64,000 nucleotides of DNA from Octopus vulgaris. Its lineage: Eukaryota. The notes under the pieces are model-generated. The model saw only the letters and a program-made list of their open reading frames with translations, was not told the DNA's origin and ran no database searches. A program made the translations under genes and the position numbers. Every line of letters begins with the position of its first letter. The first letter of the stretch is position 1. Below, one piece after another: positions 1,914 to 30,930 of the stretch. Location: positions 117,800,001 to 117,864,000 of the forward strand of contig OX597815.1 of assembly GCA_951406725.2 (NCBI GenBank), read 5' to 3'.

Positions 1914-3192
1914 CAGGGTGCAGTGAATAAACTGTCGTCTAAATTACGCAAAAATGAAAATAACATTGACATTTCATTTTAACAGATATATTTACCGAAA
2001 TTACATAAAAATACCTTGAAATATTAGAATTAATTTATTCAGTAAAATCGCGATTGGCTTCAACCACGGCCTCCAGACGACTTCGGAAACTCCTGCAACT
2101 CTTCTGGACACTCTCTTTGTTTAAGTTGGTGAATACTGCCATAATCCTTGCCTTCAGTTCATCTTTGGTGTTACAAGGAGTTTCGTTGTCTCTAGTTCAA
2201 CTGCACCCCACACATAATAATGAAGGGAGTTGCAGTCTGGGGGGTTAGGTGGCCAGATGTTAGGGGTAATGTGGTCGCAGCAAGTGTCTGGGTTCTTCTA
2301 CTTGTGAGGCATGGTGCAGAGAGTTCTGCTACCAGACATAGGGTCTTCCAGCAGCCACCCTCTTGAACCAGGGTAGAACGACCTCCTCCAGGTACTTGAT
2401 GTAGGCCTCCGTACTGAATCTGAGGCCGTGTGGGAAGATGAATAGAGGCATAACGTCGCCATCACTTGTGATCACTCCAAACACCATGATGTTGACTGGA
2501 TGTGATTTTTATCACTTTCGGTACATGTTTTGGGGATACGACAAGCCAACGGTTGTTCTGTGTGTTCACCATCTGATCCTGGTAGAAGTTTTTCTCGTCT
2601 GAGAAAAATCAAAGCATGTTCGGTTGGAGGGGATATTTGAGTTTATTGAAAAACTTCGTAGCGCGGTCTTTCTTCTCCTTGGTGGCTTGGGATCAAAATT
2701 GGCCCTTTCTGATGTTGTATGAGGAATACCGAATGTTTTCATACACTACCTACCTGATAAGAAACTCAGTCACTCCCATGTCTCTGACAATGGACCTGAT
2801 TGACTTGGAGGGATCATTGTCAATCATGGCCTGGATCTCCCCAATAAATTCAGTTCTTTATTTATAACGATCAGAATGAGTTTTCCAACCTCCATACCTC
2901 CGTAATTACCATTAGACTCATCCAACTCTTTCTGAATCCTCTGCATTATCCTCAGATTGACACCCAAACACTCTGAAATGTTCGTATTGAAGCTTTCGGC
3001 GCGAATGCCAAGCAGTACAGCATGTCGCTTCCAAATTTCTCGCACAGTGAATTGTGCCATAGTGCTGTTTTTCTCACAGACGGTGCCCAACAGACCCTAC
3101 TACACTGTGAAGTCGACAAAATCAAAAAACAAACAATACGCATGCGTGAAATTAAAAATATAAAATAGCGACAATTTACCCATCGCACCCTA
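1914..3192 (-). mobile_element. Decayed Tc1/mariner-superfamily transposon, maT/DD37D-like, with pseudogenised transposase
   Basis: TA-flanked imperfect TIRs (CAGGGTGCAGTGAATAAACTGTCG vs rc of right end TAGGGTGCGATGGGTAAATTGTCG). Minus-strand motifs: HTH-like N-terminus (ORF 2824-3090), FFSDEKNFYQDQMVNTQNNRWL (~2545-2607), YVW*QNS/APC (~2310-2340), IWPPNPPDCNSLHYYVWG (~2207-2260); stops and frameshifts present. Confidence 0.88.
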
Positions 3193-4298
3193 TATATATG
3201 AATTTTCTCGGAAACACGAATATCACAGCCATTCTTACATCCATGCCATCTTCTAATATCTTCCAAAAATTAATACTTCAAATACTCTTATAACTGAATT
3301 GGAACCCACTACGTTTAAGTACACATCTTGTTCAATTCATAGAAATGCAATTTTAAAACCTGCTCCTGTTTTCTTTTTACTACTACCACAGTCTTGTTTT
3401 ATTTACTAAACAATAAAGTTTGAGGTGACTTAAATGCCTTATAAACTATTAAATTGAATGAGTAGAACAAAGCTCACTGTTGTAATAGTTTTACAAGAGC
3501 TGTGTTTAAGTAGGATGTCCCAGCATTGTGACAAAGGTCATTCATTTTCAGAGGAAGAGGAAATTGACAAAACAATTGAGTAAACTTTGTTATAAATATG
3601 ACACTATACGAATGACTTCCACATAAAGAACTCCATTATTAAGGTACTTATAGTGAGAATTTGTGAAGTGTGCGCAGACCGAGATCGTAAGCGCAATTCA
3701 GTTTTCACTACAGCTTGGCCACATTTAAATCACACGAACATACACACACAAAGATACAGTTAATATGATCATGACAAACCGAGACAAACTTTACATTCCA
3801 TCTCACAGGATTTGATTTATCGATCATGTTCCTTCACTAAAAATTTATGACCTCGAGCCATTGTGGTAGCTCAAGTTATTAATAGAGGGCACCATAGTAA
3901 GCATAATGTCTCCTAATGAGCCAAATCCCAGATCTAGCTTTCAATCCTAGCTTGAACCAGTTCTCTGCTTTTAAGTTGTTAATGCTCCAGGGAAAGAAAT
4001 GACGTTGCAATTTCCCACTTCCCTCAACTGAAAGGAAATGTCAAAATGTGCATTTATAAGAAATCATAATGTTTCAGTTGACCTCGGCATTCGAAGTCTT
4101 TTGGGGTGAAATATTGAATGACGAAGCAGAGTTTATGGATACTGAAACATTTATGAGTAAAAGAAAGCAAAAGGATTAGTATAAATTATATATTACGGAT
4201 GAACCAGGGAAGAAATATTTATATACATATACATACATACGACACCATTTTAAATTCAATATCCACTTCTTTAATGGCGGCTTCTGTGCATGCACACA

Positions 4299-7442: not shown

Positions 7443-9265
7443 AAAAGTTCAGCATCTTGGTTTATTATGATTTCATGCGTTTTTGGAAAACCTGAACGAG
7501 TTTCGATGGTACGAAAAGAAAATTTACTTTGAGAGAAAAATAAATAAGTCACAAAAGATTATTACTCTACTCTTTCTGATAGAATTCATTCATTATATAA
7601 AGTTACATTTTCCCTTTTGGGAGAGGATGCTAGTTTACTATATATAGTCTTTGGTGAAAACATGATACACTTGATACTTGCTACAAAAACTAGAGTTAAT
7701 CTGCTCTTGTGGTTTTTTGTATCCACAGCACAGAATAGTTTATATGGCATAACTATTGAAATTCATTCTTTTAAAGAATTATTTATTTAATGTTATAGTT
7801 AAATGTATTAGAAAAGCATGTCATCTTTCGCCAGTATTTATTTAATAATTTGACACACAAACATACATATATTGTAACCGTTGGTGGTTTGACCAGCACT
7901 GACTATATGTGTGTGTATTATATATATATATTATATAATTTATCATGTATATTACACAATTATACATTACATAATCTATTATATATCTGCATGTGTGCAT
8001 GTAAAAGACACTCCCATAGATTTTGAGATATGGAGATCCAAGAATTCAATTTTAAAAAATCATTTTTCCGCAGAAGATTACTAAGCTATTAGACTACCCA
8101 CACAGATGATGTGGTTACACTGATAAAGGCTAGTACAGGACCGGCCGCATGTTTTAGAGAGTCTAAGAGCAGAAAAATGGTACACGTTCGTACCATGACT
8201 TACCCAAATAACACTCCCCAGACATTATATAAGACTAATTATTTCCTAACGACATACTTTAACGAGAGTTAAAGGGTAGCCCCACTCCTTTGGATTGAAA
8301 ACGTGTTGACACCAAATGCATACATGCACGGACGGTTTTGTTGGTAAATGCCTTAGTGACAATCTAGAAAAGTTAGGGTTTTCAAAAAGGAAATCAACCA
8401 ACTAACGCGAACATTACAAATACAATCTGTAAGCAGAACAGTAAAAGTATGCAAGACTTTTCTCAATTTCAAAATGTGAATTTGCTTTGTTATTTACATT
8501 CCATCGATACAGCTTTGTATCTATCTTCGTTAGAAACAAGCTCCTTCCTTCAAGGAACTTTTCAAATAATTAAAAACAGATGAGAACATACGTACATATA
8601 CATACTGAAATGTGGCAAAATAATTTTTCTAACTTTAGTGTAGTAAATCCTATTTTTCTCGTTTTACTAATTCTTTGGAAACTGTAGTTAATCAAAGTCA
8701 AGTTACTTGTGTGTGTGTGCGATGGTGTTTGTGTATGCGATGACGTCTGTGTGTGCGATGGCGTATGTGTGTGTACGCGTTGGGTTATATATTGACAAAA
8801 TATATTACAACCATACACATATTTAATATAACTGGTTACGGAAACTATAACAAAACACACACGACTTATTAACTCAAATCTCTACGGAATTTTAAGTAAA
8901 ACAAGTGAAAAATATTTTACTACTTTTAGCATAAACAATCTCTTTTAAAAGATTTATGAAAGAAAAAATGCCTTTACTATGCCCAAAGTGATAAAAATAT
9001 TTTTGAAAATACTTCTACCGTTAAATGAGGAAAACAGACAATGAAGGAAGTAGGAAAATATTGAACGTCATCCTTAGCATCAAAGTTGCATACATCCAGA
9101 ACCAAACACAAACACACACACACACAAGGGCATGCGCAAAGAGATCAATACTCAGTATGAGCATCATGGACACCTGTTGTTGATTACTTTCAAAACAGGT
9201 AAAGTACAGCTCACACAGCAACCCATACACCTGCCCCAACATAATAAGCACACGCGCTTACATAT

Positions 9266-24472: not shown

Positions 24473-24662
24473 ATCATCATCATCATCATCATCATCATTT
24501 AGCATCCGTTTTCCATGCTAGCATGGGTTGGACGGTTTAACTGGGGCCTGTGAAGCCGGAAGGCTTCATCAGGCCCAGTTAGATTTGGCAGTGTTTCTAC
24601 GACTGGATGCCCTTCCTAACGCCAACCACTCCGCGAGTGTAGTGGGTGTTTTTTACGTGCCA
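24473..24662 (-). mobile_element. Repeat family E, 3' part
   Basis: (CAT)n then TTTCCATGCTAGCATGGGTTGGACG...GGATGCCCTTCCTAACGCCAACC. Confidence 0.75.
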
Positions 24663-27960: not shown

Positions 27961-27999
<39 letters not shown>

Positions 28000-28208
28000 C
28001 ATTCAAATAGAGGTTATATTGGCCTCATGAAGGGATGGTATCATCCAAAAAAATACTGGTTCAATACCTAATATTTTTGGTGGCAGGTTAATATCCATAA
28101 ATTAATAGGTTTATATATAAACGATGGTTTATAGTCATGCACATGAATGAGAAAATGGAGATATTGAAGTTAATAAGAGTTTATTATCAGCAAAAATATC
28201 GATCATTA

Positions 28209-28274
28209 TCCCTTACAGCTGTTTCAATTAAGCTTATTAAAATCATATTTCTGAGCTTAATCTTTTCAGAGGGA
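28209..28274 (-). ncRNA. Type I hammerhead motif, core-mutated copy (G8A)
   Basis: Minus strand: TCCCT-CTGAAAA-GATTAAGCT[...]AGCTTAATT-GAAA-CAGCTG-TA^-AGGGA. Confidence 0.65.
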
Positions 28275-28357
28275 GAAAGAATACACCCTTAGATATAATG
28301 TGTGTTTTTTTTAACCCTAAAAACTAACACACAATATGTCTAAGGGTATATTCTTTT

Positions 28358-28440
28358 TCCCTCTGAAGAGATTAAGCTGAAAAATATTATTTTAATAGTT
28401 ATTTAAATTCACTAAGTGTAATTGAAACAGCTGTAAGGGA
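28358..28440 (+). ncRNA. Type I hammerhead ribozyme motif with canonical core
   Basis: Stem I TCCCT/AGGGA, core CTGAAGA (28363-28369), stem II GATTA...TAATT, GAAA (28424-28427), palindromic stem III ACAGCTGT, GUA cleavage triplet (cut after 28435). Confidence 0.75.
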
Positions 28441-28614
28441 TAATGGTCGATTTTTCTTTATGATAATAAACTCTTATTAACTTCAATATCTCAATTTTCT
28501 TATTATTCATTTGCATATATATGTATATATATATATTGAAGATGTGACTAAAGCTGAAATATATTTCTGGCACATACATATAAATAAGCTACTATTATTA
28601 AACATACATTAATC

Positions 28615-28800
28615 ATCATTATCATCATCATTTAATATCAATTATGCATGCTGGCATTGGTTGGATGGTTTGACAGGATTCATTGAGTCCAAGAACTACA
28701 TTAGGCTCCAGTGTCTGCTTTGGTATAGTTTTTACAGCTGGATGCCCTTCCTAACCCCAACCACTTTACAGTGTGTACTCGATACTTTTTCCAAGACACC
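28615..28800 (-). mobile_element. Repeat family E, 3' part (CpG-decayed)
   Basis: (CAT)n ... CAGCTGGATGCCCTTCCTAAC. Confidence 0.7.
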
Positions 28801-30564: not shown

Positions 30565-30930
30565 TGCTGTTACAGGTATGTGGTTTACCAGCCATGTTAG
30601 TTCTGGGTTCAGTCCCACTGAATGCCATTTTGGGCCCTCAGGTCAATCAAAGCCTAGTAAATTGATTTGGATTGGGTAGATCATCATCATCATCGTTTAA
30701 CGTCCATTTTCCATGCTAGCATGGGTTGGACGGTTCGACCGGGGTCTGGGAAGCCAGAAGGCTGCACCAGGCTCCAGTCTGATCTGGCAGTGTTTCTACA
30801 GCTGGATGTCCTTCCTAACGCCAACCAATCCATGAGTGTAGTGGGTGCTTTTTACGTGCCAGGTGAGGCTGGCAATGGCCACGATCAGTTTTTACGTGGC
30901 ACAGGCACAAAATTGAAAGAAGCCTGTCCT
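30565..30930. mobile_element. SINE-A fragment (+) interrupted by a family E copy (-, 30680-30900)
   Basis: A-type sequence stops at GGATTGGGTAGA and resumes at AAATTGAAAGAAGCC. Confidence 0.7.

Follow-up and report, generated by a model that had tools for sequence, protein, structure and literature searches.

Head-to-head pseudo-LTRs (pLTRs) with a tail on one side only have already been described in Penelope-like retrotransposons, or PLEs (PMC3846280, PMC8557442), and pairs of hammerhead motifs lying on opposite strands have been published as well (PMC4209133; PMC8557442 supplement). In Schistosoma mansoni, for instance, dual hammerhead motifs are reported 100-700 bp apart on opposite strands (PMC4209133). 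PLE hammerheads are described as cleaving weakly even as dimers (PMC4209133), and one of them needs the help of a protein and is dispensable for insertion in vitro (PMC11167929). The Hydra clade, exemplified by Hydra-1_Obim, Penelope-1_NV and Penelope-13_HM (Craig et al. 2021, PMC8557442), is defined by a change from DKG to DKT, a divergent RT4(B), an N-terminal RWK motif and a CxCX5C linker, together with the absence of CCHH, the presence of CxxC and CxH motifs flanking the conserved E and N, and insertion into (TA)n (PMC8557442).

Here we analyse a 64-kb stretch of Octopus vulgaris DNA (the window, whose numbering is used throughout), in which a first-pass annotation had singled out a 380-bp palindrome carrying two opposed hammerhead motifs. 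We consider it probable that the insertion at 28001-28516 is made of two 5'-truncated PLE pseudo-LTR ends set head to head in (TA)n, likely produced in one event in which both cut ends of the target acted as primers. The copy is very likely a dead relic with no present function and, being one decayed copy in a published arrangement, the locus is of little import when taken alone.

The insertion and its two hammerhead motifs

The palindrome is present as first described, its inverted-repeat arms being identical at 174/192 aligned columns with a single 17-nt gap (Table 1). The insertion exceeds the 28137..28516 initially delimited, as its left arm extends a further 136 nt to 28001, and (TA)n borders it on both sides. 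Candidate target-site duplications like the one flanking it were found at 2/20 loci (flanks were obtained for 20 of the 21 listed) against a control mean of 0.63, and 261/2,000 shuffles reach 2. Contigs from 4/4 sequencing runs, belonging to four studies, span the centre of the palindrome, two of them without any difference -the best-matching DNA run may itself be the source of the assembly-, so the palindrome is real DNA and not an assembly artefact. A second allele of the junction region (28254-28376), with a 2-nt deletion at 28305 and A>G at 28291, is found in runs X2, X3, X4 and X8. Telomere-repeat addition was considered for the central TAACCCTAA and rejected: its 3' part is family sequence, and it is absent from other junctions. 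Elsewhere in the window, a very abundant SINE-like repeat starting with (ATC)n is present in three copies (24482-24662, 28615-28763 and 30680-30861).

Table 1. Features of the insertion and of its borders, in window coordinates
Feature	Position	Strand	Basis or remark
(TA)n microsatellite, left target flank	27965..27999	.	sequence
Left copy of the candidate 14-nt target-site duplication	27986-27999	.	not distinguishable from microsatellite chance across loci
Tail, 136-nt pseudo-LTR 3' extension, left arm only (family positions ~505-641)	28001..28136	-	family mapping
Left arm, 5'-truncated PLE pseudo-LTR end, beginning near family position 312-320	28137..28312	-	family mapping
Left type I hammerhead motif, G8A, 17-nt loop II deletion, predicted inactive	28209..28274	-	
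Left core box CTGAAAA (G8A), same layout as right arm	28269-28263	-	
Head-to-head junction, ~2-4 nt in neither arm, locus-specific	28313..28316	.	junction list; crossed by other-run contigs
Right arm, tailless 5'-truncated pseudo-LTR end (family positions ~310-504)	28317..28516	+	
Right type I hammerhead: core intact, GUA site, stem II weakened past five pairs	28358..28440	+	
Right stem I, TCCCT / AGGGA	28358-28362 / 28436-28440	+	
Right core boxes, CTGAAGA and GAAA	28363-28369 and 28424-28427	+	
Loopless self-complementary stem III ACAGCTGT, right arm	28427..28434	+	
Predicted cut at the right GUA site	after 28435	+	
(TA)n microsatellite, right target flank	28515..28537	.	
Right copy of the candidate 14-nt target-site duplication	28515-28528	.	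same 14-mer as 27986-27999

A type I descriptor of our own, run on both strands of the 64-kb window, recovers the two opposite-strand motifs that had been noticed, one per arm and the left one with G8A, and no other. The right arm has the CUGANGA and GAAA boxes and the NUH site of the type, while the left arm departs from them at G8. The 17-nt gap is read as a deletion in the left arm because most family copies have a long loop II. As the two motifs lie on opposite strands, a single transcript cannot carry both. A non-LTR retrozyme was considered and rejected as an identity for the locus, the window having two motifs only, on opposite strands. The right motif is canonical in its core but not in stem II, which drifts beyond its five proximal pairs with private changes relative to the family majority at 28379, 28381 and 28417-28418. 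The Rfam scan, which had been suggested as a check, gave no hammerhead match at E<=1; the miRNA matches that it placed at 28250-28382 are under their gathering scores and were discarded as hairpin look-alikes.

The dispersed family and its parent element

Counting genomic copies, as the first-pass annotation had proposed, revealed a dispersed family: the 380-bp query has at least 1,002 candidate matches in the genome. Family pieces from 81 loci were mapped on a 641-nt reference taken from one of the copies (L014), in a sample that is enriched for palindromes by the first query and was fetched in part with tail or palindrome queries. Identity to the majority sequence has a median of 88.5% (range 70-94%, n=80 arms), in 52/81 mapped loci the DNA retrieved contains no inverted partner, and 20/77 ribozyme-spanning arms have stem III and the two core boxes intact; the copies thus appear old and decayed. 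Family 3' ends lie at ~500 or ~640 and are followed by microsatellite in most copies. Among the 5' ends inside the reference, 22/99 fall at 293-297 and 3/99 at 421-430, around the cleavage site. The majority sequence at 293-297 is TCAGTC, which we take to be an initiator-like (Inr) motif, and we infer that transcription would start at this position. Both arms of the window copy begin downstream of it.

In the 2.8-Gb genome (227 contigs), exact matches to the pattern CTGANGA-N35-60-GAAACAGCTGTA number 1,932, against 0 for its reversed control, which argues that the motif is not there by chance. These intact cores amount to a large hammerhead population; the motif at the window locus went undetected by Rfam. 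Stem III ACAGCTGT is common to the 1,932 exact cores, as the search pattern required; they belong to many families, whose stems I and II are unrelated. Relatives with other palindromic stems III are found in L225 and L139. We sampled 40 of the 1,932 cores (taken alternately from the first 79 listed on contig C1), and their stems I and II differ widely in sequence. In this cross-family sample, in which related copies are not independent, stem I has 3.6/5 positions paired versus 2.56 when shuffled and stem II 4.4/6 versus 3.49, values that 0/2,000 partner shuffles reach in either case. Within the family, 84.2% of fold cells are paired versus 30-42% when slid, in 69 copies (the 77 ribozyme-spanning arms minus 8 with large deletions), and there is one clear two-sided change between subfamilies (A-U in 24 copies, U-A in 22). 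RNAalifold returned no consensus structure for the same 69 copies. Stems that differ in sequence and yet pair better than in all 2,000 shuffles argue that the hammerhead fold would have been under selection in the parent elements, and the proposed check of stem covariation came out in favour of the ribozyme. In these elements the hammerhead would be functional, probably as a dimer or assisted by a protein. That the motif is a product of chance, or the locus of misassembly, could be suggested by the silence of Rfam and by AT-rich, repeat-rich surroundings, but the contrast with the reversed control, stems that pair above every shuffle and a junction present in four runs leave practically no room for it.

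Long copies hold broken coding remnants upstream of the pseudo-LTR end, with ~3 kb of microsatellite-rich sequence in between. In L137, an RT remnant, an endonuclease remnant and the family pseudo-LTR follow one another in this order on one strand; L222 and L227 show the same order of RT remnant, endonuclease remnant and end on one strand, with more diverged ends, and L139 has an endonuclease remnant and the family end. The window copy itself is without RT or GIY-YIG sequence. These same-strand remnants, and the covariation of stems I and II, bear out the proposal of a PLE terminus with a dimer-type hammerhead. Of the attached RT/GIY-YIG ORFs that were to be looked for, broken remnants do exist upstream of the pseudo-LTR, but no intact ORF of the family was found in the long copies.

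The remnants carry Hydra-type motifs: a CxCX5C linker in L200, L202, L209, L213, L214 and L215 (CxCX4C in L199), KKCxxC..E and CxH in L208, L214, L215 and others, and, in the one readable GIY-YIG core (L215), a single Cys between the VVY and YIG boxes, with CCHH absent. RT remnants have a GLY(R/K)D(D/N) box, and in one decayed copy, L221, DKA stands at the place of DKT and the RT4-5 region is like that of the Hydra rows by eye. The N-terminal regions of L221, L226 and L219, the site of the RWK motif, are broken or missing, and Pfam gave a sub-threshold GIY-YIG match in 1/4 remnants only. Hydra-type insertion into (TA)n is seen at the family 3' flanks and at both flanks of the window copy. The parent is in all likelihood a Penelope-like retrotransposon with Hydra-clade motifs, the clade being called from these motifs.

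Another PLE frame sits nested inside a (TA)n tract belonging to a long family copy (L136:3457-5740, minus strand; G000:C19). It encodes RT and GIY-YIG over 688 aa without stops, is followed by its own minimal hammerhead-like motif, and by its motifs is presumably a Neptune-like PLE. We rejected it as the coding partner of the family, because it is on the other strand and ends in a sequence of its own, unlike that of the family. In L226 (~3150-3500, plus strand), a diverged hammerhead end in direct orientation lies just upstream of RT remnants, with (CA)n between them; a full-length element may begin in this way.

The window copy was also examined through RNA folding. The hammerhead-compatible fold of its right arm (-6.9 kcal/mol) is ~7 above the minimum-energy fold (-13.7 kcal/mol), and in the same model it lies above the minimum in 20/20 intact-core family copies. 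Between two molecules, stem III is predicted to form an 8-bp helix (-11.1 kcal/mol). The long hairpin foreseen for a read-through RNA holds in silico, with the intact core buried in a duplex with the left arm, and stem I has a pairing probability of 0 in the read-through RNA as well as in transcripts starting at the centre. The left motif is predicted to be inactive by analogy with G8C, which is reported to abolish hammerhead cleavage (PMC11167929). A self-cleaving RNA from the window copy seems unlikely: both arms begin downstream of the 5' end common in the family, the predicted minimum is another fold than the hammerhead, and in a read-through RNA the core is paired with the left arm. We give very little credence to the idea that the copy is kept as a working host element, whether as an active ribozyme on the plus strand or by supplying long double-stranded RNA. 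Its right core is intact when only 20/77 family arms are so, its junction is found in runs under three organism labels and read-through is predicted to form the long hairpin; but arms that are ~9% diverged, the deletion, G8A and the changes in stem II are what is expected of neutral decay, stem I does not pair in the modelled transcripts and there is no Pfam match in 22/39 stop-free window frames scanned. Short contig pieces, 1 from one run presumed to be RNA and 5 from another, are in no case unique to the window locus and carry no weight either way.

Arm anatomy and the formation of the palindrome

Among 30 head-to-head junctions, 23 are one-tailed, one is two-tailed, none is without tail and six are unclassifiable. 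One-tailed pairs are therefore 23/24 of the classifiable ones (p=1.5e-6 vs 50%), for tail classes that were defined after the data were seen and with one 'pair' that contains an 870-nt gap. In eight long loci outside this sample no far-end arm was found, which makes them uninformative about the one-tail rule. The tailed arm consists of tail sequence only, with nothing shared with its partner, in 3/23 pairs. The arm that extends further 5' is the tailless one in 11 of the 23 and the tailed one in 4, the two ending within 10 nt of each other in the remaining 8; the 11 vs 4 bias is not significant, and with such a split no single fold-back direction explains all junctions. Arm-to-arm identity is above the median identity to other copies in 14/18 pairs and did not discriminate between explanations. 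One diverged copy (L222, ~2900-2990, minus strand) folds back tail to tail around a centre that lies a few bases 3' of the cleavage site, the sole such case seen in the family.

Junction sequences and arm lengths vary by locus, so the palindrome would be remade at each site. The same observation makes it very improbable that the 380-bp palindrome moves by itself as a non-autonomous unit, MITE-like or retrozyme-like, being copied whole. Several palindromes are indeed alike, with both arms starting at 293-297, but the variation of junctions and arms, the many mapped loci that have no inverted partner (52/81) and the lack of a retrozyme-type tandem array speak against it. In the sample of 40 intact cores of mixed families, 2 have a partner in direct orientation and, within 800 nt, a head-to-head partner is present for 10, overlapping the ribozyme in 9 of them; the genome therefore likely has hundreds of head-to-head palindromes. 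Other repeat families also have long palindromes adjoining microsatellites, in L026:344-1199, L177 (~190-610) and L150 (~7970-8100), which are likely the same kind of insertion.

The strict tail asymmetry and the long tail favour priming from both target ends, a mechanism towards which we lean slightly. In it, the PLE protein would nick both strands of a (TA)n target; one target end would prime at an outer start site on the RNA (~640) and the other at an inner one (~500), matching the two family 3' ends, ~140 nt apart. Both cDNAs would extend towards the 5' end of the RNA (~294), across an uncleaved hammerhead, and would then be joined into a head-to-head palindrome. Work with a purified PLE protein provides the elements of such a process: it nicks and extends both target strands, and on uncleaved RNA its starts in vitro are at two internal positions, which delimit the tail (PMC11167929). 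In the same paper the two strands did not differ in start site, so that it leaves the pairing of the two sites unexplained. In the literature searched, consisting mostly of papers outside subscription, no statement of a two-ended model for Penelope was found.

Arkhipova et al. 2013 (PMC3846280) have instead proposed, to account for the head-to-head junctions of PLEs, that the inverted arm arises by self-priming, a fold-back of one nucleic-acid strand, possibly antisense RNA. Short arm overlaps are seen at several junctions, although the overlap estimates come from local HMM ends and are fuzzy, and fold-back on an antisense template would give both the tail-only arms and the 11 cases with a longer tailless arm. 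The 4 loci with a longer tailed arm would nevertheless require the opposite fold-back direction, and the template copied in vitro, from nicks in the two target strands, is sense RNA (PMC11167929). All the junction cases are accounted for if both target ends prime at the two RNA start sites; antisense self-priming accounts for most of them, and we see it as possible but rather doubtful. 'Fold-back', as in the first-pass annotation, is hence one candidate mechanism besides two-ended priming, with which the arm anatomy agrees at least as well. More tentatively, the palindromes could be the record of an integration intermediate, with a fixed pairing of the two ends, start sites ~140 nt apart and copying up to the Inr-like start without cleavage, in which the conserved, loopless 8-nt stem III could be the RNA-RNA contact keeping two templates together in a dimeric complex.

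Comparison with known systems

What is new in this set of copies is a Hydra-type family unlike Hydra-1_Obim, a tail of ~140 nt and a tail asymmetry that has been counted. The set has modest value for the question of how PLE inverted ends and tails are formed: the nearly strict one-tail rule, the clustering of 5' ends at a single site and a tail of unusual length offer cheap genomic tests of two-ended priming versus self-priming.

As regards coding capacity and targets, the family resembles the Hydra-clade PLEs with a C-terminal endonuclease domain (EN+), which have RT followed by GIY-YIG, the CxCX5C, CxxC and CxH motifs, (TA)n targets and a type I hammerhead near the 3' end (PMC8557442). Penelope-1_NV is close in its ribozyme, with a tccc/ggga stem I, an acag..ctgt stem III and an A at the cleavage site, and in Penelope-13_HM there is an inverted copy, truncated on its 5' side, so that both strands carry a hammerhead (PMC8557442 and its supplement). 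The stems differ from those of Hydra-1_Obim, however, and the family is set apart from the clade by a long loop II (54 nt separate the core boxes), a loopless stem III, a microsatellite-rich 3' region of ~3 kb and a tail of ~140 nt instead of 30-40.

The ribozyme also recalls the minimal, dimer-type hammerheads of PLEs (Cervera and de la Pena 2014, PMC4209133), which are of type I with a long helix II, a short helix I and a palindromic helix III. Its stem III, an 8-nt perfect palindrome, is longer than in the minimal form described there, and position 10.1-11.1 is G-U in 57/69 family copies, not G-C as in those hammerheads. Non-LTR retrozymes (bioRxiv 10.64898/2026.07.22.740005) are likewise related to PLEs, non-coding and endowed with a type I hammerhead, but they are described as head-to-tail tandems with two motifs on the same strand, whereas the window holds a head-to-head pair. 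Counterparts in arrangement are the inverted pLTRs of EN+ PLEs (PMC3846280; PMC8557442 Fig. 2), with which the family shares the head-to-head disposition, a tail on one pLTR and an Inr-like motif in the pLTR; the differences are that both copies at the window locus are shorter than 350 nt and have no ORF, and that the tail asymmetry has here been put into numbers, at 23/24 classifiable pairs.
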